Below are positions 34,517 through 63,837 of a DNA stretch of 64,000 nucleotides, one piece after another (position 1 is the stretch's first letter; each line of letters begins with the position of its first letter). A program made the translations under genes and the position numbers. The stretch lies in the sequence record OQ411014.1; one strand, 5' to 3'. The DNA comes from Escherichia phage EJP2. The notes under the pieces are model-generated. The model saw only the letters and a list, made by a program, of their open reading frames with translations, ran no database searches and was not told where the DNA came from.

Positions 34517-34525
34517 GATAATCTC

Positions 34526-35704: not shown

Positions 35705-35740
35705 AATCAAATCTCCGTAATTAAATCATACAGTATTTAC

Positions 35741-35771
35741 AAAAAAAATGCCAGTACATATTTCAGTACTA
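35741..35771 (-). terminator. rho-independent terminator within paralog array (example)
   Basis: minus strand: agtactgaaatatgtactggc followed by T8. Confidence 0.6.
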
Positions 35772-35775
35772 TATA

Positions 35776-36942: not shown

Positions 36943-37019
36943 AATTAATTCTCCAAAATTAAAATAATTATAAGGTATTTAATAAAAAAATACCAGCACC
37001 TTTCAGTACTGGTATTATA

Positions 37020-38402: not shown

Positions 38403-38443
38403 AACTAAATTCTCCAAAATTAAAATAATTATAATGTATTTAC
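38403..38443 (-). promoter_or_regulatory. conserved upstream leader/promoter module of paralog array (example)
   Basis: minus strand gtaaatacattataattattttaattttggagaatttagtt-ATG; near-identical upstream of at least 10 paralogs. Confidence 0.5.
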
Positions 38444-38474
38444 AAAAAAATACCAGTACGTATTTCAGTACTGG
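38444..38474 (-). terminator. rho-independent terminator within array
   Basis: minus strand: ccagtac-tgaaatac-gtactgg followed by T7. Confidence 0.65.
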
Positions 38475-38482
38475 CTTTTTAA

Positions 38483-39652: not shown

Positions 39653-39739
39653 AACTAAATTCTCCAAAATTAAAATAATTATAATGTATTTACAAAAAAA
39701 TACCAGTACGTATTTCAGTACTGGTATTGTGGTATTGTA

Positions 39740-40846
39740 TCATTTCGGCATTGTAATTGCAGACCATGAATTTGAAGTAATTGGACCTGGTACGAACACT
39801 GTTGAACCACATGCATAAATTTGTCTATCCCCATCATACACAACACTAAAGCTAGTACAAGTAAACAATGACGAATTTAATGGATTGTAAGTATCTAATG
39901 TTAGTGTATTCTCCCACTGACTTGAACCTAGACCACCTGACCTACCAAATGCACCAGTACTGTATATCTTACCTTCAGTTGTTGCATATATATTAACATA
40001 TGAAGTTGAACTGGATTTAGATATTTTATGTATCTTATTATCAATTGCACTAGGGTTAAATGTAAATGGATATATTTGTACGTTAGTTCTTGAACCATTA
40101 CCAAGTTGACCATCATACTGCCAGCCAGCAACGTATGTACTACTACCTGAATATGCTATAGTACTAGTACTGTTACCGCCCAGTATTTTAACACTAGTTA
40201 AACGACTTACTAAAGTAATGTACTGCCCTTGACTCACACCCAGTGAACCATAACTACTAGTCCCACATCCAATAAGGTCACCGTTGGATGTTAAGATTAA
40301 TGTGTTGTTTTGCGTACCATATATATCAGCAACTTCATTTGTACCAGTATTCAGTACTAACACAAAAGCACTCTGTGAACTTGGATATCCACCACCGAGT
40401 GAATAGTTACCGTTCATGCCTCTTCCATAAACCTTTGTACCACTAGCATCTACGTAGTGCATCGTATCTGAACCAATTGATATCATTTTAATATTAGATA
40501 TGTGTGGGAATGAAGAAGTAACATCTAAACCACCCAAGGGGATTGCAGTATTACCCGTACCTAACTGAGAAGTAACTCCGTGTATTCTGAACTCTTCTCC
40601 TTTGAGATACAGAAGACTGTACCCACCAGCCCATGCATCAGAAACACCCTCTGCAACTAATATCCAAGTATTTTTTGCTGCTGTACCAAAGACATTCAAC
40701 TGCAAATATGAATTATCTCCACATCCATATAATGTCCCATCACTATATAGTACGTACAAATTATTGGTTCCACAAAATACTTTCTTGATCGTTATACCTT
40801 CTGGGGCTATATTTCCATAGGTCATTATTCTTGCAAAAGGTAACAT
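39740..40846 (-). CDS. RCC1-like beta-propeller paralog, N-terminal MLPFARIMTYGN
   Basis: 368 aa; LYGCGDNSYLQLNVFG and related repeats. Confidence 0.8.
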   Translation of the reverse strand: MLPFARIMTYGNIAPEGITIKKVFCGTNNLYVLYSDGTLYGCGDNSYLQLNVFGTAAKNTWILVAEGVSDAWAGGYSLLYLKGEEFRIHGVTSQLGTGNTAIPLGGLDVTSSFPHISNIKMISIGSDTMHYVDASGTKVYGRGMNGNYSLGGGYPSSQSAFVLVLNTGTNEVADIYGTQNNTLILTSNGDLIGCGTSSYGSLGVSQGQYITLVSRLTSVKILGGNSTSTIAYSGSSTYVAGWQYDGQLGNGSRTNVQIYPFTFNPSAIDNKIHKISKSSSTSYVNIYATTEGKIYSTGAFGRSGGLGSSQWENTLTLDTYNPLNSSLFTCTSFSVVYDGDRQIYACGSTVFVPGPITSNSWSAITMPK

Positions 40847-40937
40847 AATTAAATCTCCATATAATAATTATAATGTATTTACAAAAAAAGCCAGTACGTA
40901 TTTCAGTACTGGTATTGTGGTATTGTGGTATTGTGAT

Positions 40938-42128
40938 TTAAGGCTTCGGCACTGGCGGTGTTACCAGTTGATATGTGTTCTGAATTGTATTGTTCGAGAA
41001 TGAACGTCCAGTGTAGTATACGTCACCAGCTTTCGTCAAATAAGCAACGCCGAAATCAGCACCAACATATGTTTCCATGCTGCTAATATTAGGTGGATTC
41101 ACTGGCGGCGTAAATCTAGCCTTGTTACTATTAGTACCATTACCAAACCGACCATAAGTACCATTACCTGTAGTATATAATGTACCATTAGTACTAATAA
41201 CGCAACCAATGTCTGAACCATCACCATTGGTGTTAAGTGTTACTGGAGAAGTTATTACAGTACTGCTATCAGTAAGGAATAGTAAGTTATTATTAATACT
41301 TACAGCATTACTTAAACTACCTGTTCCTAAGTTTCCATTAATACTGTTACCACTTACAATTAAGTACCAAGCGTCAGTTGTTGTATTGTTTATCAATATG
41401 AATGAACCATCTGTGTTCATTGCAACATCATGTGGAATTAGGTTAGTAGCTAAATTGTACTTAGTCCATGAATATATGTTATTCGTTGTTGCCGTAATAC
41501 CCAAGATCCCAGAACTATTCTGACCAGTTCTCCAGAGTGAATTATCATTCTTGATAATCCACGTGGTATTAATGCGATGTGTTAATTTTTTTACATCAGT
41601 ATTCAATTTAGTAAAAGTACTAACCATAGTGTTACTACCAAGTCCTAATGTCCCTCCTAGGTTTCTACCCATACCATATAGATCACCATTTTCTAAGTGC
41701 ACTAAAATATGACTCCACGAAACCTGAATATCAATTATACTGTCTATTTGTGTAGGTGTAAAAACACTCGTAAACAAAGTCGTTATATCAGTCCACGTGG
41801 TACTAAACCCAGTACCAGCAACAATATCATTTGCTCCGGTGTAATAAAATTTATTATCAATAGTCTGAATCAATGCGAACTCAACAAGTGAACATGCAAA
41901 TCTTTTAACATCATGATGTACTAAAACCCAATTCGGATAATTTGTACCACCTGAATCACCTTGTCCGAAGCAGTAGTTCCTTGAAGTTCCACCACCAATC
42001 CCATATAGTGTGTTGTCCTTGTACAATATAAACAAACAACCACTATTACCCGATGGCATATAAATTGTTTCTATTGGTGAAGTAGGTAACTTATTCCCGT
42101 ACTCCAAAATTCTTGCAAAAGGTAACAT
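40938..42128 (-). CDS. beta-propeller-like paralog, N-terminal MLPFARILEYGN
   Basis: track ORF to 42188; conserved ATG at 42128 (396 aa). Confidence 0.75.
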   Translation of the reverse strand: MLPFARILEYGNKLPTSPIETIYMPSGNSGCLFILYKDNTLYGIGGGTSRNYCFGQGDSGGTNYPNWVLVHHDVKRFACSLVEFALIQTIDNKFYYTGANDIVAGTGFSTTWTDITTLFTSVFTPTQIDSIIDIQVSWSHILVHLENGDLYGMGRNLGGTLGLGSNTMVSTFTKLNTDVKKLTHRINTTWIIKNDNSLWRTGQNSSGILGITATTNNIYSWTKYNLATNLIPHDVAMNTDGSFILINNTTTDAWYLIVSGNSINGNLGTGSLSNAVSINNNLLFLTDSSTVITSPVTLNTNGDGSDIGCVISTNGTLYTTGNGTYGRFGNGTNSNKARFTPPVNPPNISSMETYVGADFGVAYLTKAGDVYYTGRSFSNNTIQNTYQLVTPPVPKP

Positions 42129-42215
42129 AACTAAATTCTCCAAAATTAAAATAATTATATTGTATTTACAAAAAAAATACCAGCACATATTTCAGTACTG
42201 GTATTGTTTCTTATT

Positions 42216-43406
42216 TTATTGCCATAACTGTGTTGGCATTAGGGTTAGTGTAGTAACAACAGACGCACCATTAGGTAAGTTACCACCAGAACCATTAAAA
42301 CCACCACACGCATATAATTTATAATCTTTAGTAACAATTAATGTCCTGGACCAGTCTTTAGATGCCATAAGAACATTGTCATATCCACCAGGTATAGCAG
42401 TTAATTTAAACAACGCCCACGAATTAACTAGAGTTGTATTTCCTGTTCCTTGTTGACCATATGAATTGACACCACCACTCCTAACATATGATGGGTATTG
42501 AGCCATAGGTGTACCAATTGATGCGTTACCCATAGAACTAGGACATAAGAAAGCATCACTAATATTCACTGTAACTTGTGAATTTTTAACTGGAGTGAGT
42601 TGGTTTGTAGATGAAGTAGTACCATTCCCAGCTTGTCCAGTATTGTTGTAACCACTCCAATACACACTACCAGCAGTGAACCACCAAGTAACATCATAGG
42701 TAGCACTTATATAATCGACGTTCGTTCGTATTAATTTATTAGTATAAACGAATGAGCTAGTCCCACCCCCACTTTCACCAAAGTTATCCTTACCACAAAA
42801 CCATGCTTCTTTATTTGTTTTGAGATAGTGTGTACCCTGTAATGAACATGCGAGTTGAGAAACTTCACCCATATTAGTCATAACTGTTAGTACTGGAATA
42901 GCATTTTTATTCCCTGAACCACATTCAGCATTTGTATTGTTACCACAAGCAATGACTCTTCCATCGTGTAGTAATATTCTAGTACTTTCACCTATATGTA
43001 CACTCTTGATTAAATTAGCGTGCACATTAATTTTGTCAAAGGAAGCAGTAACATCAGTCCATGTTAAGAAATATCCATTAACAGGAGTTGCGGCTCCATA
43101 ATCAGGAAATGCACCTATCGACCCAGTGTAGTATATTCTATTATCCAGATCAATCATCAATGATCCATGAACACCTACCCAAAACGCCGCACAGTGCATT
43201 GCGAGTACAGTAAAAGTAGAAACTGTTGATCTATTCCCTAGACCTAATTGGCCCAAGTTATTACTACCATATCCGTATAATGTATTCGTGGGCTTATGTA
43301 GATACATAGCATTGGTGTATTGTTGCTGTAAAACATCAGTAAACTCTACTGGATCAGGAGGGGCAATCGTATTCCCATAAGTCATTATTCTTGCAAAAGG
43401 TAACAT
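42216..43406 (-). CDS. RCC1-like beta-propeller paralog, N-terminal MLPFARIMTYGN
   Basis: track ORF to 43421; ATG at 43406; clear repeats LYGYGSNNLGQLGLGN, WYSGYNNTGQAGNG, VNSYGQQGTGN. Confidence 0.85.
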   Translation of the reverse strand: MLPFARIMTYGNTIAPPDPVEFTDVLQQQYTNAMYLHKPTNTLYGYGSNNLGQLGLGNRSTVSTFTVLAMHCAAFWVGVHGSLMIDLDNRIYYTGSIGAFPDYGAATPVNGYFLTWTDVTASFDKINVHANLIKSVHIGESTRILLHDGRVIACGNNTNAECGSGNKNAIPVLTVMTNMGEVSQLACSLQGTHYLKTNKEAWFCGKDNFGESGGGTSSFVYTNKLIRTNVDYISATYDVTWWFTAGSVYWSGYNNTGQAGNGTTSSTNQLTPVKNSQVTVNISDAFLCPSSMGNASIGTPMAQYPSYVRSGGVNSYGQQGTGNTTLVNSWALFKLTAIPGGYDNVLMASKDWSRTLIVTKDYKLYACGGFNGSGGNLPNGASVVTTLTLMPTQLWQ

Positions 43407-43447
43407 AACTAAATTCTCCAAAATTAAAATAATTATAATGTATTTAC

Positions 43448-43481
43448 AAAAAAATACCAGTACGTATTTCAGTACTGGTAT
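43448..43481 (-). terminator. rho-independent terminator within array
   Basis: minus strand: taccagtac-N8-gtactggta followed by T7. Confidence 0.65.
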
Positions 43482-43485
43482 AATG

Positions 43486-44658
43486 TTATGGTAAAATAAT
43501 AGCTTGTAACGAACTCATACCCAATTCTGGAACACTCGCCTGTGGTGCTGGTGCATTCACTTTTGGTGATGAAACCGCATAAGTCATTCCTGTACCCAAA
43601 TCTGGATCAAAAACTACAGAACAATAATCCCCATTGTATATAAGTCCATTAGTATATCCTTGTGCACTTTGAATGCATTTCGTGAACGTACCAATGTCAG
43701 TAGTGGCATTTATTAAGTTCCTCCCACGGTAGCCACAGGTGTATATGAAATTATCAACACCTATGTACATACTCGCATTCCCAGAAGAACTACATAGATA
43801 AGACATATAAGCACGCATGTTTTTAGGAGCAACTGACAATGTACCAGCATAGAATTTATTATTCGAACCCGAAATATCACCATCACCCAAAGCACCAAAA
43901 CTCCCCCAACCAGTACCATAATATCTCTTATCACTCAAGAATATAATACAGTTGTTATTACACATCTTGATTTGATATATCAATGAAGGATCAACCCCAG
44001 GGAATGATTCAGTGTATGTTAGAACAGCCAGATCAGTACTAGCATTACATTGATGATATGTATTAGTACCAGCGGACAATATTGTACCATTAGCTAATAG
44101 AATCCTCGAAGTGCCAGTACCAGCAGTACAAGCAACAGCATTACCTGTATATATTTGTCTGAAAGTAAAGAAACCAACAGTTTTACTCCCCTGTCCACTC
44201 CAACCAGTATTATCAACACCACATGCCCATACTGAACCATCTTGCATGATCATCATTACACCATAGCGTTCTATCGAAATATAGACAATCTTCGTAGTAT
44301 CAACTGCACTAAATCTAGAAGTTATATCAGTCCAAACCTTTACACTCACCGCCGTCGCACCGAAAGTAGGATCTTCCCCTGCTATCATTATCCTACCATT
44401 GTTAGTCAGATACATTGTCTGACCATAACCAGTACTACAAAACTTAACACTATCAGTCTCTGGAACTTTTAACCACTCGTTGTAACGTGTTACGTTAGTG
44501 TTATTACCTAACTGATAATAGTTATTCATCCCAGATACATATAACACACCATCCTTTATTAAACTATAAGTCGCACTATAGTCACTACAGGTATAACGTG
44601 TACCCACAGGCCGCTCAACGACGTTCCCATATTCTAACATCCTTACAAAAGGTAACAT
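43486..44658 (-). CDS. RCC1-like beta-propeller paralog, N-terminal MLPFVRMLEYGN
   Basis: track ORF to 44664; ATG at 44658; LYVSGMNNYYQLGNNT repeat. Confidence 0.8.
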   Translation of the reverse strand: MLPFVRMLEYGNVVERPVGTRYTCSDYSATYSLIKDGVLYVSGMNNYYQLGNNTNVTRYNEWLKVPETDSVKFCSTGYGQTMYLTNNGRIMIAGEDPTFGATAVSVKVWTDITSRFSAVDTTKIVYISIERYGVMMIMQDGSVWACGVDNTGWSGQGSKTVGFFTFRQIYTGNAVACTAGTGTSRILLANGTILSAGTNTYHQCNASTDLAVLTYTESFPGVDPSLIYQIKMCNNNCIIFLSDKRYYGTGWGSFGALGDGDISGSNNKFYAGTLSVAPKNMRAYMSYLCSSSGNASMYIGVDNFIYTCGYRGRNLINATTDIGTFTKCIQSAQGYTNGLIYNGDYCSVVFDPDLGTGMTYAVSSPKVNAPAPQASVPELGMSSLQAIILP

Positions 44659-44732
44659 AATCAAATCTCCGTAATTAAATCATACAGTATTTACAAAAAA
44701 ATACCAGTACATATTCCAGTACTGGCCTATTA

Positions 44733-45854
44733 TTAAAAGGGCAACGGTAACTCAGTAAAAGTACTTACGTTCGGTAAACCATACATTAAATTAGCATCAC
44801 CACAGTAATACCACTTCGTAGAATCATGTACCACCGATAAACGCTGTGCACATAACACTTCCTGTATGTCATTAAACACCATCGGGACTAACTCATATGT
44901 ATCCGCATATGAAGATTCACCACCACTCGCATGAAAAGTATTCATCCCAGCATAAAATAACTGATTAGTGTTCTTACCCACAGCAAATGTCATCAATATC
45001 CCATCATTCTCCCATAAAGAAGAAAACTTATCAACACTACCAGAAAGCTCTGTGTAAGTACTCGTAATGGCACTCGCAGCCGCCGCATTACCCATCTGTT
45101 TATTCAAGTTCTGTCCAGCAATAAAATATCTCGTGCGTGCACTAGAATCAGTATATAATAACCCAGTGTTCGTAGTCATCATTCCAATGTCCTTAATCGT
45201 CATACCAGTCTGTGAATAACTTAGATACGAAGTTAAACTACCATTATTACCCAACGAACCGTTATCACTCATGCCACAACGATGTAATATACCACTTGTA
45301 TCAACGTAGATAGTACTAACTAAACTCGTATACAACTCTTGTACATTATTCGCAATAAACACAGCAGTCGCCTTATTAGTAACCCCACCAAATGATAGGT
45401 TATTATCAAATCCCTTAGCGTATAATTGATTATTAGTAGTAACTAACCCAATCGCGTAATAAGATATTTTCATATCCCTTACAGTACTCAAATCTACTAC
45501 CCCAAATTGATGCGTAACATCTGTCCATGTGAAAATCTGTGCACTACCAACACCACCCGTTTCAAACCATTTGTCACCACAGTACAATATGCGATTATCC
45601 TTAGTAAAGATAACTGTTACCAATCCACTACCACACGCAAACTTTACATCACTTCTAACCTTCGTCCAATCAAGTACATAGGTAGTGGTGTTATTACCTA
45701 TACCTAACTTACCATAACGGTTATAACCACGCACCCACAAATCACCACTCTCAGTAATTAATAGTAATGCGTCTCCTGTACTTATTATTCGAAATCCCGA
45801 ACTAGGATCGGGTGCTATATTCCCATAAGTCATCATTCTTGCAAAAGGCAACAT
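44733..45854 (-). CDS. beta-propeller-like paralog, N-terminal MLPFARMMTYGN
   Basis: 373 aa; WVRGYNRYGKLGIGNN repeat. Confidence 0.8.
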   Translation of the reverse strand: MLPFARMMTYGNIAPDPSSGFRIISTGDALLLITESGDLWVRGYNRYGKLGIGNNTTTYVLDWTKVRSDVKFACGSGLVTVIFTKDNRILYCGDKWFETGGVGSAQIFTWTDVTHQFGVVDLSTVRDMKISYYAIGLVTTNNQLYAKGFDNNLSFGGVTNKATAVFIANNVQELYTSLVSTIYVDTSGILHRCGMSDNGSLGNNGSLTSYLSYSQTGMTIKDIGMMTTNTGLLYTDSSARTRYFIAGQNLNKQMGNAAAASAITSTYTELSGSVDKFSSLWENDGILMTFAVGKNTNQLFYAGMNTFHASGGESSYADTYELVPMVFNDIQEVLCAQRLSVVHDSTKWYYCGDANLMYGLPNVSTFTELPLPF

Positions 45855-45935
45855 AATAAAATCTCCGTAATTAAATCATACAGTATTTACAAAATACCAG
45901 CACATATTTCAGTACTGGTATAGTGGTATATTAAA

Positions 45936-47084
45936 TCACTGCACAAATGACATATCAACTTCTGTGTAACTAGGCACGCTCTGTGTAGAAAGACCACCCA
46001 TTGCTACCATCGCAATTCCACAATAATATAACTTCCCTTTGTCATCGAGTAACAATGTCCCAGATGGTGTTGTTACTAAATTACACGAAGTATTAAAAGA
46101 AGTATATGAAGGAGTATAGTAGTACTGATTAATGGTATTACCTACACCTAATTTTCCATACCCATTGCCGCCAGATGCGTAAAGTACTTCATCTGCTTTG
46201 ACAATATGTGATGCCATGTTACTAACACACGTATATACAGCACTAACTCCTGTACTCAATAATGTAGGAGTCTTGTATTGGAGATCAGTACTGGAAGATG
46301 TTCCACCTGTACCAAATTCATTACCGTATTGTGCACCGTATTGTTTACCACATCCGTACAAATTACCATCACTCTTAATAAAAAACGTACTCTGGTAACT
46401 TACATTAAAATCAATAACATCTGATGCAATCTGCTTTACTCCAGTGATAGAAACCTGATCCCCTGTACCTAACTGATAGTAATAGTTAAATCCACATCCC
46501 CATAAGGTATTGTCTGTACGCAAATAAATGTTACCAACAGCCTTTTTAACAGACGTTATAGTACTGACCTTCTTGAATGTATTAAATGAACTAATGTTTG
46601 TACCATCTCCAAAGGATGTTATATTAGATATGTTATTAGCACCACAACAATATAATGTACCGTCATTTGTTACCAAATTCACCTTCATATTATTAAAACT
46701 ACTCATGTACGCAATATCCGAAACAGTAATACCACTGGATGTTATCCACGTAGTACAATCCGTCCATAACGTCTTTCTATCAGTTACACCAGTGAATGCA
46801 TTTGTGTTTCCAGTCATAAACACTTTCCCTGTGCCCTCTTCTTCATACAACTGACAATCACTGCTGTTATCTTCCAATAGAACTCTTTTAACGTTCTCTG
46901 CACATAGAATAAATTTACTCGCAGCTACTCCAGTTCCCGTACCATAAATGCTTCCAGATGATGCATACAACTTTTTAGTGAAAGTATCATGTAAGTATAC
47001 AGACATACTAGAATATATTTTAAAACGATCATCGTTAGTAGGAGCAACATTACTGTACTCCAATATCCTCGCAAAAGGTAACAT
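45936..47084 (-). CDS. beta-propeller-like paralog, N-terminal MLPFARILEYSN
   Basis: track ORF to 47099; ATG at 47084; Gly/Thr/Asn-rich repeats. Confidence 0.75.
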   Translation of the reverse strand: MLPFARILEYSNVAPTNDDRFKIYSSMSVYLHDTFTKKLYASSGSIYGTGTGVAASKFILCAENVKRVLLEDNSSDCQLYEEEGTGKVFMTGNTNAFTGVTDRKTLWTDCTTWITSSGITVSDIAYMSSFNNMKVNLVTNDGTLYCCGANNISNITSFGDGTNISSFNTFKKVSTITSVKKAVGNIYLRTDNTLWGCGFNYYYQLGTGDQVSITGVKQIASDVIDFNVSYQSTFFIKSDGNLYGCGKQYGAQYGNEFGTGGTSSSTDLQYKTPTLLSTGVSAVYTCVSNMASHIVKADEVLYASGGNGYGKLGVGNTINQYYYTPSYTSFNTSCNLVTTPSGTLLLDDKGKLYYCGIAMVAMGGLSTQSVPSYTEVDMSFVQ

Positions 47085-47123
47085 AACTAAATTCTCCATA
47101 CAATAATTATAATGTATTTAACC

Positions 47124-47153
47124 AAAAAAAGCCAGCACCTTTCAGTACTGGTA
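47124..47153 (-). terminator. rho-independent terminator within array
   Basis: minus strand: accagtactgaaaggtgctggc followed by T7. Confidence 0.6.
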
Positions 47154-47162
47154 TCTATAATC

Positions 47163-48059
47163 CTATGTAAAAACATACTGCGTGTTAACACGTGTACCAT
47201 TGTCAAAACCAAGCACATAAAATATCTCAGGACTATTATTAGAACCAAATAACGCTCCAGTACTACTACTCAAAGTACTATTAACCGCTAACGCAATCCA
47301 TTCGTTTTGTTCTTGGTCGTATCTCAATAAATTTAATGCACCAAATGATACTGCATATATTTGTTTATCATATGTATTGTAAATTATTTTACTAGGGTTA
47401 GAACCACCAACACCAGCAATGTTAGACCACACAGCACTCTGTATATGATATTTTTGTGCAGTACTCACACCTTGGCCTGTAATATATATGTAAGTACCAT
47501 CTGTACACATATCACCACCACCATTGTTATTTGTACCATCACTCGTACCTAATGATGCCCAGGTATTAGTACTAGGAGTATAACTGTATAACGAATTATT
47601 AGTAGGAGATCCCCACAAATATATCTTATCACCAGCAGTAATCATCTTACTATACGCCAGTTGATTAGGCTTCCCAATACTGTTAGTGTTCAGAATCCAG
47701 GTATTTGTACTTATATTATATACATAAAAATTATTAGCACCATTACCAGTACCACCAAACAAATATATTTTCCCCTCATAAAAACATAACGCACTACCAA
47801 ATGTAGATACAGGTGCATTGGCTAATTGTAACCACGTTCTAGTACTTAAATTAAAACTCCATAACTGATTATCCCCCATCACCGCATTCTGTATACCACC
47901 AAATATATAAGCAGTATTACTTTTCGCATCATACGTATAACCAAAGTTATTTTTAGCAGGAGGTACAGGTGATGTCGTAAATGCAGAACGTATTCCCCTA
48001 TTGGTAGCAAACACCTCTGCAACATTCCCGTACTCCAACATCCTTACAAAAGGTAACAT
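47163..48059 (-). CDS. Kelch-like beta-propeller paralog, N-terminal MLPFVRMLEYGN (short member)
   Basis: 298 aa; Kelch-type spacing: AYIFGG...WSFNLSTRTW...KIYLFGG...YVYNISTNTW. Confidence 0.75.
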   Translation of the reverse strand: MLPFVRMLEYGNVAEVFATNRGIRSAFTTSPVPPAKNNFGYTYDAKSNTAYIFGGIQNAVMGDNQLWSFNLSTRTWLQLANAPVSTFGSALCFYEGKIYLFGGTGNGANNFYVYNISTNTWILNTNSIGKPNQLAYSKMITAGDKIYLWGSPTNNSLYSYTPSTNTWASLGTSDGTNNNGGGDMCTDGTYIYITGQGVSTAQKYHIQSAVWSNIAGVGGSNPSKIIYNTYDKQIYAVSFGALNLLRYDQEQNEWIALAVNSTLSSSTGALFGSNNSPEIFYVLGFDNGTRVNTQYVFT

Positions 48060-48136
48060 AACTAATTCTCCAAAATTAAAATAATTATAATGTATTTACA
48101 AAAATACCAGCACCTTTCAGTACTGGTATAGTAGTA

Positions 48137-49246
48137 TTATATCGGTAAATCTATCTTAGTGAAAATACCAACATCTTCACTCGCTCCAGGTATTGCATAA
48201 TATGTCCCAGTACTGTACACTTCACCATCTTTTGTTAATATAGATGTTAAACCATCACTATAAAGAACATCCCTGATATCACTAACTCCAACTGGTAACT
48301 GCAAATTCGTTGCACTATAAACCGCTCCAGTCTGAGAATTGTTTAATCCTAAACCACGGTTTGAACCTACACCCTTCTGATATGTACTAGTAATTATAAT
48401 TTGTGTAGCAGTATTTAATGCAGGTGAATTCGTCATAAACAACGGAGAACTATTAGGCAAAGAACTTGCAGGAACTGCACGAAATGTAGTTGCATCTGAA
48501 CTAAGAAAGTTTGGCGTTTGACCACATACGAAATATGATGTACCATTATAGTAATTAAATGCATTACCACCTATAGCTGCATCTATTACTCCAGTACTAC
48601 GTAATCCCCACGTGTTAATTTGTGTTCGGTTCCCCGTACCATGCTGACCCCTGTCATTCCACCCAGAACTATATAACTTATTATCTAATGTAATATACAT
48701 ACTGTCATTTGCATTCGTCATTACTTTACGCACATTAGTAGCACATTGAGTTAATGTGTAAATTGATGATGAACCAATACCTAAAGCACCACGATATCCA
48801 TTAGCCCCTGCACCATAGAGTACTGAACTAGTGCTAAGTACAAATATTAAACCATACGAACATACTATATCAGCAATTTCATTTACCGATAGTACACTAG
48901 TAAACCACGCAGTCCTATCAACTAATACAGTACTGTAAGAAGTCCCAGTAGAAGACGAAAACCAATAAGTCTCACCAGTAGTCCATATAGTATTGTCACT
49001 CTTAATAACAACAACTGTACGATCACCAGCAAAAAAATTAGTAACTCCTGTACTCACTAATGTCCATGAAGATACAGTGTTCGTATTGTTATTACCCGAT
49101 TCCCCACCCTGATTCCTACCTATGTAATATAATTCATTCGTGTCAGTCAACACATACTGCCCCTGCGTCGATGCCCCAACCTTAATTATATTTTTAGGAC
49201 CGGGTGCAACATTCCCGTACTCCAACATCCTTACAAAAGGTAACAT
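48137..49246 (-). CDS. RCC1-like beta-propeller paralog, N-terminal MLPFVRMLEYGN
   Basis: 369 aa; LYSSGWNDRGQHGTGN, LYGAGANGYRGALGIG; 10 bp downstream of 49257-50387. Confidence 0.8.
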   Translation of the reverse strand: MLPFVRMLEYGNVAPGPKNIIKVGASTQGQYVLTDTNELYYIGRNQGGESGNNNTNTVSSWTLVSTGVTNFFAGDRTVVVIKSDNTIWTTGETYWFSSSTGTSYSTVLVDRTAWFTSVLSVNEIADIVCSYGLIFVLSTSSVLYGAGANGYRGALGIGSSSIYTLTQCATNVRKVMTNANDSMYITLDNKLYSSGWNDRGQHGTGNRTQINTWGLRSTGVIDAAIGGNAFNYYNGTSYFVCGQTPNFLSSDATTFRAVPASSLPNSSPLFMTNSPALNTATQIIITSTYQKGVGSNRGLGLNNSQTGAVYSATNLQLPVGVSDIRDVLYSDGLTSILTKDGEVYSTGTYYAIPGASEDVGIFTKIDLPI

Positions 49247-49256
49247 ATTTCTCTCC

Positions 49257-50387
49257 TTAATTTAATAATGCCCCTGGCAAATCCACTTTGACGAATTGTG
49301 CATATGCTGTGGAATTTTGATCAAAGTTTGGTCCCAATCCATAAAATGAGCTAATGCCGTCTTCATTTGTGTATATGATATAAACGTTCTTTACATCATT
49401 TCCGCATATAAATCGAATGTCTTTCGTTTGTGTTCCCGCTGGAACATTACGAAGGCTCACAACGCCATTACTTGCATTGTTATCAGCCGACGCAATTGGT
49501 AATTGATTTTGACCATATTGACCACGCATATTTTTTGCATCTAAACCAAACACAGTATTTGATACCGCACCAACTTTCAAAAATGAACCAAAACTATCAT
49601 TGAATGACTTTGGAAATGTACCACTATAAACACTTCTCCCATCTGATAATACCGCTGAACTGAATTTCCCGCTATTCGATATGGCAAATTCATTGTAAGG
49701 AAGTGTACCCATTTTGGTATATACAGAATATGAATTAGTGGAAGTATTATCAATAATCTTATTACCATTATATCCAATACCATACTGGTATCCGTCTGCA
49801 TCTTGAACTATACACAAAGGACCACTTGGGGTTTGTGTCAACGAAACAACACGTTCAACTTGTATATCACCAAATGTATTTCTTCGCCATGTTCTATCTA
49901 TTATAGTACTAGTATTACCCAAAGATAATGCCACACTATATAATAGATTGTTTTCAGTAAAAATGGCAACATAATATGCGTGGTTAATAACTTGCTTCAT
50001 CCCAGCATCAATAACTTCCTGTGGAATATGATCAGTAACATCCAACCAATCAAGGTTAGATGATGCAATATCTGGAGTACTGAATTTGTCAAATCTAGTT
50101 GAGCCACAAACTAGCACTCTATCATCATTTGTCAAAGCCACTGTGCTAGTCTGCATATTAGAACTGAATGATTTAACATTACTAATGTTAGACTTGTACC
50201 AACCCTTATCAGCAGCACCCACCGTGAATCCGGTTCCCATTGATCCACTTGTACTTGTACCATAAGCCCACATCTCACCACTATATGTTAGTGCCATACA
50301 GTGGCTTCCATTTGCTTGGAAATCCTTTATACCAGTGGGAGCAGCCACTGTATTCCCATAATTAAACATTCTAACAAAAGGTAACAT
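49257..50387 (-). CDS. beta-propeller-like paralog, N-terminal MLPFVRMFNYGN (first gene of array)
   Basis: track ORF to 50396; conserved ATG at 50387; upstream conserved gtaaatactatataat motif. Confidence 0.75.
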   Translation of the reverse strand: MLPFVRMFNYGNTVAAPTGIKDFQANGSHCMALTYSGEMWAYGTSTSGSMGTGFTVGAADKGWYKSNISNVKSFSSNMQTSTVALTNDDRVLVCGSTRFDKFSTPDIASSNLDWLDVTDHIPQEVIDAGMKQVINHAYYVAIFTENNLLYSVALSLGNTSTIIDRTWRRNTFGDIQVERVVSLTQTPSGPLCIVQDADGYQYGIGYNGNKIIDNTSTNSYSVYTKMGTLPYNEFAISNSGKFSSAVLSDGRSVYSGTFPKSFNDSFGSFLKVGAVSNTVFGLDAKNMRGQYGQNQLPIASADNNASNGVVSLRNVPAGTQTKDIRFICGNDVKNVYIIYTNEDGISSFYGLGPNFDQNSTAYAQFVKVDLPGALLN

Positions 50388-50501
50388 AATAATCATCCCT
50401 ATACAATAAAATTATATAGTATTTACCAAAACAACTATTGACAACACAATAGCAGTACTGTATAGTATAGCAATAAAATTCCCACATAAAGGCCCAACAA
50501 C

Positions 50502-51328: not shown

Positions 51329-51756
51329 TATTACAGTACTATAAGCACTAAGGGTGTTTGCTCCGTAGAGAGAACGTTCTCCTATATAGGGGGATGGCCT
51401 TTAGATAATCCCCCTGGACAAAACGTTATCGAACGGATTCAACACCCCGTCCAGGGGGCATTTATTAATATACAGTCCTAGATGAATTAATATAAAAAGT
51501 ACGATATAACATTACATACACGATGGCAGTACTAGAGTTCATGGGACGATTGTGTATAAGACTTCAGTACTATAGACAATACTTCAGTACTGACCCCCTT
51601 GCACTATATCTTCTTAGTACGTAAGAGTACAAGAAGTATTTTTCAGAGCCTGTACTTTTTTGTCAAAGCCTTTCCCTTCCCCAGCGTAAAAGTACTTTTC
51701 AGTACTGTCAAAATTACCTTCCACCCTCCAGCAAAAAGTTGGTTAGTACTCCATCC

Positions 51757-51848
51757 TAAATCCCGATCCTAAAAATTTTGGAGTACCAACGAAATTAAAT
51801 CCCGATCCTAAAAATTTTGGAGTACCAACGAAATTAAATCCCGATCAT
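51757..51848. repeat. tandem direct repeat, 39-bp unit x2.3
   Basis: taaatcccgatcctaaaaattttggagtaccaacgaaat repeated exactly, then a partial third copy. Confidence 0.75.
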
Positions 51849-52380
51849 CAAAAGTTCAAATTTACCTTGACGTGTTCATGATTTCTCTCTATAGTACTGG
51901 CTAATGTTCAGTACTGAATGATGTTTTTCACTATAGGGTAAATTAATCTCCTATATAGTAGAAATTAGGGCTTGACTAAATCTTTCAGTACTGTATAATG
52001 ATTTGCATAGGGAGAGAAATCACCGCAAAAGATTTTGAACCTTATGCCTCCTGTCGTGAGACAGTACCGAAGAGATTGACCCTCCTATGCTGGTGGTCAT
52101 CTTGGACAACTAGTTTTCTCTATTCATCCTAAACAGTACTGTTACATCCCTCTGAGCAATCAGGTGACAGTACTGATATTAATCCACCAGCGTCGTTCTA
52201 ACGATGCTAATGATAAACAACGTATATAGTACTACATGATAGTCTTTGTATCTTCTGGGTGAGTTATGAGGGTTATGATGGCAGTACTGTATACACTCCT
52301 ATTAAGAAGTTACAGATACACTAAGGGCGTACTATGGGTAAATTTTGGGCGTACTTGTGCTAGGAAGGATTTAGCCGTAG

Positions 52381-52580
52381 AGACACCTAGACCTCCAGAC
52401 TCCTGGATGGATAGATGGATTTCCATCTAGACGGCTAAACGGCTAGATTGCTGGATGGATAGATGGCTAGCCATTTAGACGGCTAAACGGCTAAACGTCC
52501 GAACGTCTAGAAGTCTGGCGGTATGGATGGCTAAACGTCTGGACTGATAAACGTCTAACCATCTGGACGGCTAAAAATCA
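52381..52580. repeat. cluster of short direct repeats and palindromes
   Basis: ctggatggatagatgg x2; tagacggctaaacgg x2; ggctaaacg x4; aaacgtc x3; palindromes agatgga-tt-tccatct and atggct-agccat. Confidence 0.7.
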
Positions 52581-52753
52581 TTAGTGTCATTTTCAAGCAT
52601 TGGCTAGCCTACCGCGTCGGGGTAAATTCCCCAGCAGTATCGAACGTTAGATTTTTCTGAATCTGGAATCATTATCTTATAAACTGGGGGCAATGTCAAC
52701 GGCCTGGACGGATATTTTTAAAATTTTTTTCAGTACTGAATTTTGGGCGTAAC

Positions 52754-53030
52754 TATGCACCCGGTGGGCTTGAGTCTTTCTCGACTTGATGGAACTATTA
52801 TACAGTACTGAATTTTTAAAGCAATACCATAAACGCAAAAAGTTTTAATTAATTTGCTTGCTATCCTGGGCCGGACTATGGTACTATATTTCAGTACTGA
52901 GAAAGTGCGTTTACCTGCTAGGGTGCGGGAGTGTATCCTTTTTTTATATCTTGAATTTTGGGCGTAATTCCGCACCCTCTGGGGTTTCCGCTTTCTCGCG
53001 TCTATGTAGTAATTATACGCTTTTTCAGGA
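52754..53030. repeat. two diverged copies of the tatgcacccggtggg / agggtgcgg inverted-repeat element
   Basis: gaattttgggcgtaa...gcaccc...tttctcg...attata present twice; agggtgcgg ... ccgcaccct inverted repeat. Confidence 0.45.
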
Positions 53031-53298
53031 TCAAGTCAATACCTAAAAACAAAATAATTGAAAATAATTTAACGCGTTTAAACGACCCGTAAAGCCCTGG
53101 AATGGTTGGAATGGTGCAAATGTATAGCTTAGGGGTAATAATGCGTTAGAATGCGTCTGAGGCCGTTTTACGGGGTATAGGGATGATTTAGTGGATTGAT
53201 TCAGTACTGAATGATAGTTCCCCTGGATGGTTGCAGTACTGAATAATAGTTCCCCTATATAGAAAGAAAACTATTTTAAAAGTATTTGTAGAAAGTAC

Positions 53299-53360
53299 TT
53301 GCACCGTACTGATAAAAGCGTATAATGTTTTACATCGAGAGCGGGAACACTTCCCGCTAC
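53299..53360 (+). promoter_or_regulatory. early-type promoter + 5' leader hairpin module
   Basis: TTGCAC-N16-TATAAT then gagagcggga-aca-cttcccgc. Confidence 0.7.
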
Positions 53361-54535: not shown

Positions 54536-54551
54536 TAATTCAAAAAAGTAC

Positions 54552-54614
54552 TTGCACAGTACTGAATAAAGCGTATAATGTTTTATATCGAGAGCGGGAA
54601 GAGTTCCCGCCTCC
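54552..54614 (+). promoter_or_regulatory. early-type promoter + leader hairpin
   Basis: TTGCAC-N16-TATAAT then gagagcgggaa-gag-ttcccgcctc. Confidence 0.7.
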
Positions 54615-54633
54615 ACTTAAGAGGAATTAAAAA

Positions 54634-54864
54634 ATGACTACTATGTATATGATCGAAGTTAAAACCGTAAAAGATACGACCACGAATAAAACTACTTACT
54701 TACAGCGGATCTGCGGTGTCTGGCAACGTATCAGCAAATCAAAGTACTTTAAATTAACATCATATGCAAATCGTTCGGATTCATTCAGTACTGAAATAAA
54801 AGGTAATAAAGTACACCAATACGGCACTTATTATTATTACAGCCTGGACGCGATTGCAGTATAA
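54634..54864 (+). CDS. hypothetical small protein
   Basis: 76 aa; RBS aagaggaa. Confidence 0.6.
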   Translation: MTTMYMIEVKTVKDTTTNKTTYLQRICGVWQRISKSKYFKLTSYANRSDSFSTEIKGNKVHQYGTYYYYSLDAIAV

Positions 54865-54897: not shown

Positions 54898-54926
54898 TTG
54901 ACTTATTTTGTCAGTACTGGCATAAT
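54898..54926 (+). promoter_or_regulatory. type-II promoter (TTGACT-N17-CATAAT)
   Basis: ttgacttattttgtcagtactggcataat; converges on minus-strand promoter 55049-55077. Confidence 0.55.
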
Positions 54927-55048
54927 GTATTCATTGGCAGATAAGCCGTAGCCCATAGGGTGCGGAGATGTATCTATAGAAAAAGTAGTTTAGTATAGTT
55001 ACAGTTATGCACCCGGTGGGTTAGTGACTTTCTCGTCTTTATGTAGCT

Positions 55049-55077
55049 ATTATGCCAGTACTGGATAGTGCTGTCAA
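55049..55077 (-). promoter_or_regulatory. minus-strand type-II promoter inside repeated element
   Basis: reverse complement reads TTGACA-gcactatccagtactgg-CATAAT. Confidence 0.55.
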
Positions 55078-55121
55078 TACTTTTTTCTATTCAGTACTGA
55101 AAAAGTATTTGTAGAAAGTAC

Positions 55122-55149
55122 TTGCATAGTACTGAATAAAGCGTATAAT
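55122..55149 (+). promoter_or_regulatory. early-type promoter driving structured-RNA element
   Basis: TTGCAT-N16-TATAAT. Confidence 0.65.
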
Positions 55150-55156
55150 GTTTTAT

Positions 55157-55226
55157 ATCAGGACGGGGAAGAGATTCACTGTTAAGTAGTCTAGGTGTAA
55201 GACGTATGAAAAACACCCCTGATAAA
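55157..55226 (+). ncRNA. candidate small structured RNA / leader element (copy 1 of 3)
   Basis: atcaggacgggga ... cccctgat closing helix; conserved core gttaagtagtc.agg.gtaagac.ta.gaaaa; no ORF. Confidence 0.35.
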
Positions 55227-55241
55227 AGAATTAAAAAGTAC

Positions 55242-56858: not shown

Positions 56859-56920
56859 TTGCATAGTACTGAATAAGGCGTATAATGTTTTATATCGAGA
56901 GCGGGAATGGTTCCCGCCTC
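56859..56920 (+). promoter_or_regulatory. early-type promoter + leader hairpin
   Basis: TTGCAT-N16-TATAAT then gagagcgggaa-tgg-ttcccgcctc. Confidence 0.7.
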
Positions 56921-56939
56921 ACTATTAAGGAATACTACA

Positions 56940-57161
56940 ATGGCTAATATCACTACTCTTTCCCAACTTGAAGCACTGGTTAAATCTATGCGTGACCATG
57001 CCAATAGTATTGGTGTACAAGATCCGGCGGTATGTTTTTGTGACGAATTGAATGATGATACTTTAATCATTGCAGAAGTCCAGGACGTTTCCAACTATTC
57101 ATCGCGTTACACTGGCGACGTAGCAAATAAAGGTGACTTCTGTTTATACCTTACAAAATAA
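56940..57161 (+). CDS. hypothetical small protein
   Basis: track ORF from 56907; ATG at 56940 follows RBS aaggaa (73 aa). Confidence 0.6.
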   Translation: MANITTLSQLEALVKSMRDHANSIGVQDPAVCFCDELNDDTLIIAEVQDVSNYSSRYTGDVANKGDFCLYLTK

Positions 57162-57165
57162 TAAC

Positions 57166-57195
57166 AACGGGGATAATAACTCCCCGTTACTTTTT
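57166..57195 (+). terminator. rho-independent terminator
   Basis: aacgggga-taataac-tccccgtt followed by acttttt. Confidence 0.65.
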
Positions 57196-57266
57196 CAGTA
57201 CTGAATCATTTAATAGACGGATCTATGCACCCGGTGGGTTAGTGACTTTCTCGTCTTTATGTAGCT

Positions 57267-57295
57267 ATTATGCCAGTACTGGATTGTATTGTCAA
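57267..57295 (-). promoter_or_regulatory. minus-strand type-II promoter inside repeated element
   Basis: reverse complement reads TTGACA-atacaatccagtactgg-CATAAT. Confidence 0.55.
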
Positions 57296-58745: not shown

Positions 58746-58846
58746 TATATGATGTGTTAGCCTGGCTGGTGGCGTTAAGGCCGTTAGAATGCGATTGAGA
58801 GCGTCGAAAGTATTTTAAAAGTATTTTTAGAAAGTACTTGCACAGT

Positions 58847-58865
58847 ACTGATAAAAGCGTATAAT
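58847..58865 (+). promoter_or_regulatory. early-type promoter driving structured-RNA element
   Basis: TTGCAC-N16-TATAAT. Confidence 0.65.
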
Positions 58866-58872
58866 GTTTTAC

Positions 58873-58948
58873 ATCAGGACGGGGAAGCAAACTAGCTCAA
58901 CCGTTAAGTAGTCCAGGAGTAAGACATACGAAAACCTCCCCTGATAAA
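58873..58948 (+). ncRNA. candidate small structured RNA / leader element (copy 2 of 3)
   Basis: atcaggacgggga ... tcccctgat closing helix; conserved core. Confidence 0.35.
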
Positions 58949-58963
58949 GTACTAAAAAGTAGT

Positions 58964-59571: not shown

Positions 59572-59600
59572 TTGACATAATTTGATAGTACTGACATAAT
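59572..59600 (+). promoter_or_regulatory. type-II promoter (TTGACA-N17-CATAAT)
   Basis: ttgacataatttgatagtactgacataat; no leader hairpin. Confidence 0.6.
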
Positions 59601-60996: not shown

Positions 60997-61209
60997 ATGC
61001 AAGGTCAACTAATCGTTCGTAAATGGTCTGATACTAACGCTAAACCGTGGGATGTACAATACATCGCCCCAAATGGTGAATCCAGATATCAACCAGGTGT
61101 AACGCATAGTACTGAGCAATTCGCCGCCGCTCATCGCGAACGTCTGTTACAATCAATTCAGCAAGGTTCCGGTGAAAAATTCATTCAGGATCATTGGCTG
61201 AAAGATTAA
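60997..61209 (+). CDS. hypothetical small protein
   Basis: 70-aa ORF. Confidence 0.6.
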   Translation: MQGQLIVRKWSDTNAKPWDVQYIAPNGESRYQPGVTHSTEQFAAAHRERLLQSIQQGSGEKFIQDHWLKD

Positions 61210-61227
61210 CAAAAAAAGATTAAAAAA

Positions 61228-61258
61228 GGGATTGACTCCGGTCAGTCCTTTTTGCTAT
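61228..61258 (+). terminator. rho-independent terminator (cassette family)
   Basis: gggattgac-tccg-gtcagtcc followed by T5. Confidence 0.65.
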
Positions 61259-61351
61259 TATATACGCATCGAAACAATCTAGCCCACCGGGTGCATAAAT
61301 GTATCTTTTTTTTGCTGGTGGCTAGTACTGAAAACTATTTTTAAAAAGTAC

Positions 61352-61379
61352 TTGCATTGTACTTAGAATAAAGTATAAT
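61352..61379 (+). promoter_or_regulatory. early-type promoter driving structured-RNA element
   Basis: TTGCAT-N16-TATAAT. Confidence 0.6.
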
Positions 61380-61387
61380 GTTTTACA

Positions 61388-61461
61388 TCAGGACGGGGAA
61401 CGAAACAAGTAACCCCGTTAAGTAGTCCAGGAGTAAGACATACGAAAACCTCCCCTGATAA
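61388..61461 (+). ncRNA. candidate small structured RNA / leader element (copy 3 of 3)
   Basis: atcaggacgggga ... tcccctgat closing helix; inner stem acgggg/ccccgt. Confidence 0.35.
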
Positions 61462-61467
61462 AATAGT

Positions 61468-61495
61468 TTGACAATAGAAATTAAACGAGTATAAT
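61468..61495 (+). promoter_or_regulatory. sigma70-type promoter
   Basis: TTGACA-N16-TATAAT (tttgacaatagaaattaaacgagtataat). Confidence 0.65.
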
Positions 61496-63460: not shown

Positions 63461-63721
63461 ATGGCTGTAGGATTTGCAAAGGACGGAGCGGAGCAATTAG
63501 AGATTCTGGCGGTCGTGGAGGCCGCTGTACAGCACGCAAGAAATCAGCTAGGGGATAGTACTACTGAATCACTTAAACACTGTCAGGACTGTTTTAAGCC
63601 TATTCCTGAACGTCGTAGAGAACTGGTTAAAGGTTGCAAATATTGTATTGACTGTCAAACGGAATATGATACTATATTTAAACGAGATCCGCGTAATTGC
63701 TGGCATAGGTCGATGAGATAG
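63461..63721 (+). CDS. TraR/DksA-family C4 zinc-finger protein
   Basis: 86 aa; HCQDCFKPIPERRRELVKGCKYCIDCQ matches the CxxC-x-PIPxxRR-x-CxxC pattern of TraR-like proteins; TAAATG coupling. Confidence 0.6.
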   Translation: MAVGFAKDGAEQLEILAVVEAAVQHARNQLGDSTTESLKHCQDCFKPIPERRRELVKGCKYCIDCQTEYDTIFKRDPRNCWHRSMR

Positions 63722-63743: not shown

Positions 63744-63808
63744 ATTTCAGTACTGTAACCTATAGATACATTTATGCACCCGGTGGGTTAGTTGTTGTCA
63801 TGGGATAT

Positions 63809-63837
63809 ATTATGCCAGTACTGGATAAGGTTGTCAA
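63809..63837 (-). promoter_or_regulatory. minus-strand type-II promoter inside repeated element
   Basis: reverse complement reads TTGACA-accttatccagtactgg-CATAAT. Confidence 0.55.

Follow-up and report, generated by a model that had tools for sequence, protein, structure and literature searches.

The OOP RNA of phage lambda and the sar RNA of P22 are ~70-100 nt long, start at a constitutive promoter facing the upstream gene and end at a terminator; both are single-copy and act by complementarity to the mRNA that they overlap. In coliphage 186, the face-to-face interference promoters pR and pL serve opposing gene sets at the lysis/lysogeny switch. Lambda nut boxB and HK022 put are promoter-proximal antitermination RNAs with small hairpins right after a strong promoter. 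Promoter-early stem-loop (PeSL) cassettes of T4-type phages were reportedly treated by Arbiol et al. in 2010. The PeSL cassettes (Comeau et al. 2014, PMC4122927) and two abundant terminal-repeat non-coding RNAs of the related jumbo phage PA5oct, ncRNA001 and ncRNA002 (PMC7318152), are further close counterparts of the element examined here, a repeated unit in a 64,000-nt stretch of Escherichia phage EJP2 (record OQ411014.1; hereafter the window). The unit consists of a near-consensus sigma-70 promoter, usually with an extended -10, and a conserved ~55-nt transcribed part. We propose, with moderate confidence, that each copy may be an autonomous gene for an early small non-coding RNA driven by the host polymerase, and that the partner unit would serve as the stop where copies are paired. 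The Rak2-like jumbo phages (PBECO4, 121Q, RaK2, GAP32, CBB and relatives) are considered for therapy, and their early genes are almost all annotated as 'hypothetical'.

Alignment in promoter-forward orientation gave eight full copies of the unit in the window, five on the minus strand (A, B, C, F and G) and three on the plus strand (D, E and H; Table 1). All lie in intergenic gaps after plus-strand genes, and five of the eight are on the strand opposite all neighboring genes. An earlier reading by a model from the letters alone (the sequence-only reading) had listed repeat sites at several of these positions, all of which are real. Its exact TTGACA-N17-CATAAT promoters were likewise found, on the minus strand in copies A, B and C and on the plus strand at 59572, 59837 and 62981, as was the plus-strand TTGACT-N17-CATAAT promoter of copy D. 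With at most one mismatch, TTGACA-N17-CATAAT occurs 13 times in the window against 1.08 expected, a count reached in 0 of 100 shuffles. The core GCACCCGGTGGGTTAG occurs five times with up to three mismatches (0.16 expected), in every case within a copy that the sequence-only reading had named, and a repeat finder recovers the element as direct families D11, D12 and D16 and inverted pairs I3, I7-I10 and I13. Copies A and B are 96% identical across 72 nt. The two sites described as diverged copies, 52754-52810 and 52970-53030, proved to be the full minus-strand copies F and G. A supposed fragment at 61281-61300 is instead a full plus-strand copy (E) with its own promoter and a unit at 61256-61310. 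The eighth copy (H, 52858-52942 on the plus strand) forms a second convergent pair with G.

At the flagged site near 55 kb, a plus-strand promoter had been described as facing a minus-strand promoter. The two do converge, but the plus-strand promoter is not a separate element: it belongs to an inverted copy of the unit (54925-54979), and the repeat finder matches 54912-54979 as an inverted copy of the element at 63760-63823 (pairs I9 and I13). The 'convergent promoters' are thus two copies of one element, D and A, placed tail to tail. The inverted repeat reported between them is present, with arms GGGTGCGG (54959-54966) and GCACCC (55009-55014), and exists because the two cores of the tail-to-tail pair face each other. 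No open reading frame (ORF) of at least 30 aa crosses the D/A pair in the window. The earlier structural description was therefore right save for the missed inverted copy; the functional interpretation attached to it appears partly supported, as set out below.

Table 1. Unit copies and associated features. Positions are those of the window, except for the Fur-box-like sites, which are given by locus of the relative named.
Feature	Position	Strand	Description
Copy A, full extent	55077 to 54993	minus	
Copy B, full extent	57295 to 57211	minus	
Copy C, full extent	63837 to 63760	minus	
Copy D, full extent	54898 to 54979	plus	
Copy E, full extent	61232 to 61310	plus	
Copy F, full extent	52824 to 52741	minus	
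Copy G, full extent	53039 to 52956	minus	
Copy H, full extent	52858 to 52942	plus	
Copy F unit	52741-52795	minus	AGUC-GAGAAA-GACU; GGGUG...CGCCC; 43.4 bits; directed to genome left end
Copy F promoter	52797-52824	minus	TTGCTT-N16-TATAAT; predicted start ~52790
Copy H promoter	52858-52887	plus	TTGCTA-N18-TACTAT; weakest among the eight; predicted start 52893
Copy H unit	52888-52945	plus	32.1 bits, E 5.9e-6
Copy G unit	52956-53010	minus	CGC-GAGAAA-GCG; with copy H, second 123-bp convergent pair
Copy G promoter	53012-53039	minus	TTGACT-N16-TATAAT (11/12); predicted start 53005
Copy D promoter	54898-54926	plus	TTGACT-N17-CATAAT, TG before -10; predicted start ~54933
Copy D unit	54925-54979	plus	GGC-AGAUAA-GCC hairpin, then CCCAUAGGGUGC, then 3' strand GUAUCU; 45.8 bits, E 8.6e-10
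Centre of pair D/A	54980-54992		AT-rich, 13 bp; pair spans 123 bp between unit starts
Copy A unit	54993-55047	minus	GAC-GAGAAA-GUC hairpin, then CCCACCGGGUGC; 49.6 bits, E 7.4e-11
Copy A promoter	55049-55077	minus	exact TTGACA-N17-CATAAT, TG before -10, CCAGTACTGG in spacer; predicted start 55042
Two-way intrinsic terminator downstream of copy B	57163-57191	minus face	11 pairs and U-rich tail
Copy B unit	57211-57265	minus	highest model score in the window: 56.3 bits, E 1e-12
Copy B promoter	57267-57295	minus	exact TTGACA-N17-CATAAT; predicted start 57260
Copy E promoter	61232-61261	plus	TTGACT-N18-TATTAT; predicted start 61268; -35 within terminator hairpin of the upstream gene (61224-61253)
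Copy E unit	61256-61313	plus	short form without 5' hairpin, then 8 T (61306-61313); 44.7 bits
Copy C unit	63760-63814	minus	short form; 47.2 bits; heads for hairpin after gene 63461-63721
Copy C promoter	63809-63837	minus	exact TTGACA-N17-CATAAT; predicted start 63801-63802
Fur-box-like site, Munch	L009 7434-7452		
Fur-box-like site, Kae01	L010 578-596		
Fur-box-like site, BF	L006 1034-1052		
Fur-box-like sites, Muenster	L005 787-837, 1079-1097, 1306-1324, 2422-2446		

The unit resembles a PeSL cassette in being a repeated, intergenic, near-consensus sigma-70 early promoter with an adjacent stem-loop, located in a plastic region of small early genes and present in copies that recombine. A promoter joined to a stem-loop or terminator, as in PeSLs, is seen in copy E, where the terminator of the upstream gene lies over the -35, and loosely in the others. 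The unit differs in that five of eight copies oppose the genes, that two convergent pairs occur at fixed spacing, and that the promoter is followed by a covarying ~55-nt transcribed part and not by a ribosome-binding site and gene. Nor do the five opposed copies provide a promoter and 5' end for a following gene, as a composite PeSL cassette would on our reading; within the pair, no ORF of at least 30 aa follows them. We found no mention of orientation or antisense in the PeSL paper (PMC4122927). At copy E itself (61224-61261), the terminator hairpin GGGATTGAC-TCCG-GTCAGTCCC with its T run encloses the -35 hexamer of the next promoter; the same overlap of terminator and promoter occurs in copies from GAP32, CBB, BF and Muenster.

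The remaining systems resemble the locus in part. Copy B has the layout of OOP and sar, with its promoter and minus-face terminator convergent with a gene, but it belongs to a multi-copy family, overlaps gene 56907-57161 only by the terminator hairpin, and keeps its conserved 55 nt in intergenic DNA, antisense to no gene. As with 186 pR and pL, two strong promoters converge over ~60-120 bp, so that polymerases must collide, but the members of the pair are homologous copies and neither serves a gene. The predicted 5' hairpin, in which a short stem of variable sequence closes a purine-rich loop, recalls boxB; the loop has 6-7 nt, not 5, there is no boxA-like partner, and, unlike nut and put, the minus-strand copies have no downstream operon. 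PA5oct depends on host RNA polymerase and makes its non-coding RNAs from the early region of a long direct terminal repeat (DTR), but these are longer (236 and 451 nt) and single-copy (PMC7318152), and its terminal repeat gave no match to the covariance model described below (best E = 2). The CBB, Sharanji, PeSL and PA5oct papers (PMC5259590, PMC4122927, PMC7318152) do not describe the element. Because the unit lacks a defining feature of each of the closest concepts (PeSL cassettes, OOP and sar RNAs, and the 186 promoters), we do not place it in any named family; it looks like an undescribed small-RNA family, restricted to the terminal-repeat early region of Rak2-like jumbo phages.

Iterated nhmmer searches drifted onto ordinary promoters, so we built a covariance model on the transcribed part alone, using only the ~55 nt downstream of the -10 from 71 distinct sequences of eleven phages and the window. 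Run on the 64 kb with filters off, the model gave exactly eight matches (E 1e-12 to 6e-6; next E = 0.088), all within 52.7-63.8 kb, the terminal-repeat part of the window. By sequence identity, the window is from an Asteriusvirus-like jumbo phage of the Rak2-like group: the 54-58 kb segment is ~82% identical to PBECO4- and 121Q-type E. coli phages, and 221 bp at the flagged site are 97% identical to phage WPEC3 and 88-89% identical to ~30 other genomes. The vB_Ec-M-J homologue of the flagged site, at 3460-3672, lies inside an annotated 21.5-kb DTR, and homologues also lie inside the annotated terminal repeats of CBB, Muenster and fENko-Kae01. The first bases of DTR-annotated records align to the window at ~51.54-51.66 kb, which sets the left border of the DTR there; the window thus comprises the unique right end, a ~1.8 kb non-coding leader, and then small plus-strand early genes.

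The model found no unit in the 51.5 kb of the window left of the DTR border and, in Kae01, no copy beyond the right border of the repeat. In CBB (378 kb), all 12 exact core 16-mers are in the two terminal-repeat copies and none is in the 333-kb unique part. Scanning IMG/VR with the core 16-mer returned 37 stretches, in which the only true matches were the isolates CBB, BF, RaK2 and GAP32; since the model finds nothing in the 28 metagenome stretches, those are chance 16-mer matches.

Altogether the model detected 76 copies in ten sources. Every DTR stretch examined has seven to nine, and the phages represent five groups or more. Thirty-five genomes of E. coli and Salmonella phages contain the convergent pair, with 80-97% identity. 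It is recognizable in Cronobacter GAP32, Pectobacterium CBB, Serratia BF, Erwinia pEa_SNUABM_12 and Yersinia fHe-Yen9-04, and also in Klebsiella RaK2, K64-1, Muenster and fENko-Kae01 and Salmonella Munch. The first 6 kb of the genomes from other genera have few DNA matches to the window, mostly these units; the rest are promoter and terminator sequences and one leader repeat, and only two short ones fall inside ORFs. Shared promoter and terminator sequences aside, the element accounts for most of what the early regions of these genera have in common at the DNA level.

The arrangement of the copies is conserved as well. DTR stretches usually carry two convergent pairs near the left end, and the order and orientation (+ -)(+ -) + + - is common to GAP32, CBB, BF and fHe-Yen9-04. 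The convergence noted at the flagged site is thus kept across phage genera, with a fixed geometry of exactly 55 + 13 + 55 = 123 bp in 11 of the 17 listed pairs, both window pairs among them; in the longer ones (134, 141 or 146 bp), extra sequence is inserted at the centre. Fur-box-like sites (two to four mismatches to GATAATGATAATCATTATC) occur exactly at the centre of longer pairs and in the terminal-repeat leader in Klebsiella, Salmonella and Serratia phages (Table 1), with none in the terminal-repeat part of the window, which suggests that convergent transcription may be iron-regulated or blocked by a repressor in those relatives. In vB_Ec-M-J and 121Q, D is paired with the short form that the window has at 63.8 kb; copies evidently exchange sequence. 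Small 'hypothetical protein' genes are annotated over the pair in 121Q (gene 270, L008 10044-10229), CBB (CBB_7 and CBB_8, L004 3793-4117) and WPEC3 (CDS064 and CDS065, L002 11974-12272). The pair has no ORF of that minimum length in the window and is conserved as RNA and promoter sequence, and these gene calls are therefore probably spurious.

We scored the region upstream of all 76 copies, found via the RNA part alone, against TTGACA/TATAAT. A match with no more than 2 of 12 mismatches was present in 61 copies (80%), compared with 3.7% of random 60-nt windows drawn from the same promoter-rich DNA. Of the 76 spacers, 56 measure 17 bp, and in 74 copies the -10 ends between -6 and +2 relative to the unit start. 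In the window the hexamer match is 11/12 for A, B, C and G, 10/12 for D and E, 9/12 for F and 8/12 for H, with an extended -10 TG in A, B, C, D and E. A conserved C-A-T lies at the expected start, ~7 nt past the -10, and by eye an A-rich stretch is seen upstream of the promoters. The promoter-like sites that the sequence-only reading took to be part of the repeat are accordingly integral to it, at a fixed distance. This fixed linkage means that promoter and RNA part have been inherited together and the promoter has been kept intact alongside the RNA, which is the main argument that transcription matters.

The transcribed part has a hairpin located 3-6 nt from the predicted 5' end. Its stem of 3-5 bp is free in sequence but complementary (GAC/GUC, GUC/GAC, CGC/GCG, GGC/GCC, GGAG/CUCC, UCCA/UGGA, ACAAA/UUUGU and others), and its loop is purine-rich (GAGAAA in 21, GCGAAA in 9, AGAUAA in 6 and AGAACAA in 5). 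In a search anchored on alignment columns, 63 of the 71 distinct sequences could form a hairpin of three or more base pairs at one common position, and 25 different inner stems occurred among them. Because these hairpins were picked by best pairing, the informative figure is the permutation of 3' arms among sequences, which left a mean of 6.6 and a maximum of 16 paired. On a plain, unfitted MAFFT alignment, in which register shifts conceal half of the hairpin pairs, the covariation score still exceeded all shuffles (0 of 500 reached it). The model-based alignment leaves the 5' hairpin out of register, and column counts from it (~52% paired) therefore understate the hairpin.

The segment after the 5' hairpin is nearly invariant (CCCACAGGGUGC, with the pattern (A/G)CCC-A(C/U)(A/C)-GGGUGC). 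It can fold by CCC/GGG pairing, which is 92.6% paired, or its GGGUGC can form an alternative 3' helix with (G/A)(U/C)(A/G)(U/C)C(U/C), which lies six to eight nt farther downstream. Pairing in this 3' helix reaches 90.6%, versus 23-64% with the partner slid; four positions pair mostly as G.U or U.A, and the changes on their 3' side are almost exclusively transitions that preserve pairing. A helix composed mostly of G.U can form on the promoter-forward strand only, so this helix, if real, would agree with the direction of the promoter.

Two other readings of the conserved segment were rejected. A palindromic DNA-binding site (CACCNGGTG) does not serve as the main explanation, as its middle varies like a loop and the stem sequence of the 5' hairpin changes freely. 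Protein coding fails in that the opposite-strand five-codon frame ATG CAC CCG GTG GGT TAG loses its ATG in other genera. Searches against known RNAs were negative. Rfam 15 gave no match in the window at gathering thresholds; at E up to 5, the 51-64 kb region gave three weak matches, far below gathering scores and none on the conserved core, one of which (patAB, 61209-61264, 25 of 92 bits) overlies the copy E promoter. ARAGORN called no tRNA or tmRNA in the window. No E. coli homologue or mimic appeared when one unit was compared by BLAST with 5,426 genomes, which gave only 25-nt matches (E = 9).

The fate of transcripts can be predicted for part of the family. Copy B is followed by a two-way intrinsic terminator, the plus-strand face of which (57166-57188) ends gene 56907-57161; with its end at the minus face, the copy B RNA is predicted to be ~105 nt. 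Copies H and E have 7-8 U immediately after the unit, and in H the 3' helix (stem 52920-52939) with its 7-T run (52939-52945) scores as terminator-like. Among the 76 copies, 34 are in pairs, 12 are single with a terminator within 130 nt (in the window, minus-strand copy B), 2 have their own helix and U run, and 28 have none. A transcript that reads through a pair is predicted to form a long, imperfect hairpin (-40.7 and -31.8 kcal/mol; z -4.3 and -5.1). The idea of short complementary RNAs from convergent transcription holds to the extent that the read-through transcripts of a pair would be complementary to each other.

The analysis shows a repeat family that is tied to a promoter, conserved and covarying, with pairs of set geometry; from this we infer the following scheme for transcription, RNA ends and action in trans. 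The near-consensus promoter would be used by host sigma-70 RNA polymerase, with the start at the conserved C-A-T. The RNA would have a core of ~50 nt, the 5' hairpin followed by the invariant CCCACAGGGUGC folded either as CCC/GGG or as the G.U-rich helix. Transcription could end by three routes: at the copy's own U run (E and H), at the two-way terminator of the neighboring gene (B), or, in pairs D/A and H/G, at the partner unit, which would end transcription because polymerases meet head-on in a fixed 123-bp module. Such RNA would be made from many strong promoters once the terminal repeat enters the cell and would most likely act in trans in host takeover. Its invariant 12-mer and conserved loop point to a partner, either a protein that binds the RNA or a base-pairing target. 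A more elaborate version, which we think quite unlikely, is a multi-copy class of host-takeover RNAs that the host polymerase would transcribe, in the opening minutes of infection, from the DNA that enters first, with the 123-bp pairs as terminator-less twin genes whose 3' ends would be set by collision or, in some relatives, by a repressor at the Fur-box-like site, and whose complementary tails could pair. If the RNAs are made, they would constitute a new family of phage small RNAs with an unusual gene pair, convergent and at fixed spacing, and the pair would be a compact natural system for polymerase collision ending transcription.

Several observations weigh against an autonomous RNA gene. 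Approximately 8-14 copies, C and E included, are short forms without the 5' hairpin. In the shuffle test the 3' helix was equaled in 28 and 26 of 500; the evidence is one-sided, and this control is weak because the 5' strand hardly varies. The only helix that RNAalifold returns is the 3-bp CCC/GGG one, and sequences folded singly show no exceptional stability (z -2.1 to +0.3). Given these limits, the comparative evidence leaves the 5' hairpin well supported as a predicted element and the 3' helix moderately so. No RNA target or partner was identified, no dedicated target search having been made, and the literature searched contains no transcript data for the Rak2-like group. The 28 copies with no recognizable terminator are mostly plus-strand singles; lacking one, they would read into the next gene, and the unit would then be a 5' leader.

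This last point leads to the rival that survives best, a cis-acting leader: a promoter-proximal RNA that modifies polymerase, as in put- or nut-like antitermination, or a 5' hairpin that stabilizes the transcript, with the minus-strand copies driving regulated antisense RNA. The position of the hairpin next to the predicted 5' end would fit such a role, as would its purine-rich, boxB-like loop; terminators are frequent between the early genes, and the 28 terminator-less copies are mostly co-oriented with genes and would head mRNAs. We nevertheless regard it as unlikely, as the five opposed copies in the window, and conserved minus-strand members in every genome, have no downstream gene to lead; 12 single copies, B included, run into a terminator well formed for their orientation, and paired units point at each other. 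The same facts divide the antisense transcription proposed by the sequence-only reading: it fits the five opposed window copies, but the plus-strand single copies run with the genes, so that 'antisense' describes only some of the family.

That reading had also raised transcriptional insulators, and an interference module, in which promoters facing head-on, or the collision of polymerases, would block read-through from one early unit into the next and the RNA would be functionless, is the next possibility. Every unit is intergenic and follows plus-strand genes, and gene 54634-54864, which immediately precedes the flagged pair, lacks an intrinsic terminator; the stable hairpin of the pair read-through RNA and the repressor-type, Fur-box-like site at the pair centre in some relatives would also suit it. 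A pure insulator, however, leaves unexplained why no other DNA of the early region is as well conserved between genera as the transcribed ~55 nt. Nor does it account for the compensatory changes of the 5' hairpin, the invariant 12-mer, the strand-specific G.U helix or the plus-strand single copies co-oriented with genes, and ordinary terminators are available and used elsewhere in the early region. We consider it distinctly doubtful.

Origins of the R-loop type appear less probable again. The T4 origins oriF and oriG consist of a host-polymerase promoter and a downstream unwinding element. By analogy, the G-rich RNA (GGGUGCGGAG), remaining hybridized beside the AT-rich centre, would prime the leading strand, and a pair would be a two-directional origin. 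In favor are the AT-richness and constant length of the pair centres, the restriction of the copies to the terminal repeat, and the T4-like replisome of these phages (CBB paper, PMC5259590). Against this, a conserved RNA fold is not required at origins of the T4 type, seven to nine or more of them would appear too many for 20 kb, and the single copies have no obvious unwinding element. Least probable of all is that the units are PeSL-like recombination cassettes, promoter/terminator modules kept for shuffling early genes and functionless beyond the promoter: the near-identity of A and B, the short form as partner of D in vB_Ec-M-J and 121Q and the overlap of copy E with a terminator hairpin, as in composite PeSLs (PMC4122927), would be expected, but order, orientation and 123-bp spacing are kept between genera of only ~70% identity and the non-promoter part is conserved and covaries.

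The window has other repeated features. A second candidate non-coding unit (family D3) has three clear copies, at 55112-55240, 58828-58960 and 61343-61470, two of which directly adjoin copies A and E. It consists of an early promoter, ~85 nt (AUCAGGACGGGG...CCCCUGAU) with a long-range stem, and then another promoter, with no ORF; the stem has an apparent compensatory change (GGAG/CUCC versus GGUG/CACC), and Rfam gave no match to the unit. On the plus strand between 53289 and 63954, an early cassette (family D1, 15 copies, such as 54542-54634) precedes most of the small early genes, in the order AAAGTACTTGCACAGTACTGAATAAAGCGTATAAT, a 5'-UTR hairpin GAGCGGGAA-nnn-TTCCCGCCTC, and a ribosome-binding site (families D1, D2 and D4). 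Family D1 fits the T4-type PeSL cassettes well (PMC4122927).

The ~1.8 kb non-coding leader that opens the terminal repeat (51541-53300) contains three units of a 39-bp tandem repeat (51757-51873), an array of 8-bp period (52393-52575) with units such as GGCTAAAC and GGATAGAT, which the CBB leader also matches, and a further leftward consensus-like promoter at 52699-52671. Left of the repeat, the minus strand at 33386-50396 encodes 14 tandem paralogues of ~300-465 aa, RCC1-like or 'regulator of chromosome condensation' by the annotation of relatives, each preceded by a near-identical intergenic block with CAGTACTGG.

The palindrome CAGTACTG, which contains AGTACT, is the commonest 8-mer of the window, with 104 copies where ~1 is expected (for example at 733, 9551, 37004, 55056 and 57196). 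A literature text search for it returned unrelated papers only, apparently with primer sequences. Long ORFs contain 49 of the 104 copies, in two reading frames, and the remainder are in intergenic DNA and promoter spacers. AGTACT itself occurs 294 times in the window (21 expected) and is 12-20-fold over-represented in every Rak2-like locus fetched (L001-L011); the excess is a genome-wide signal at the DNA level.

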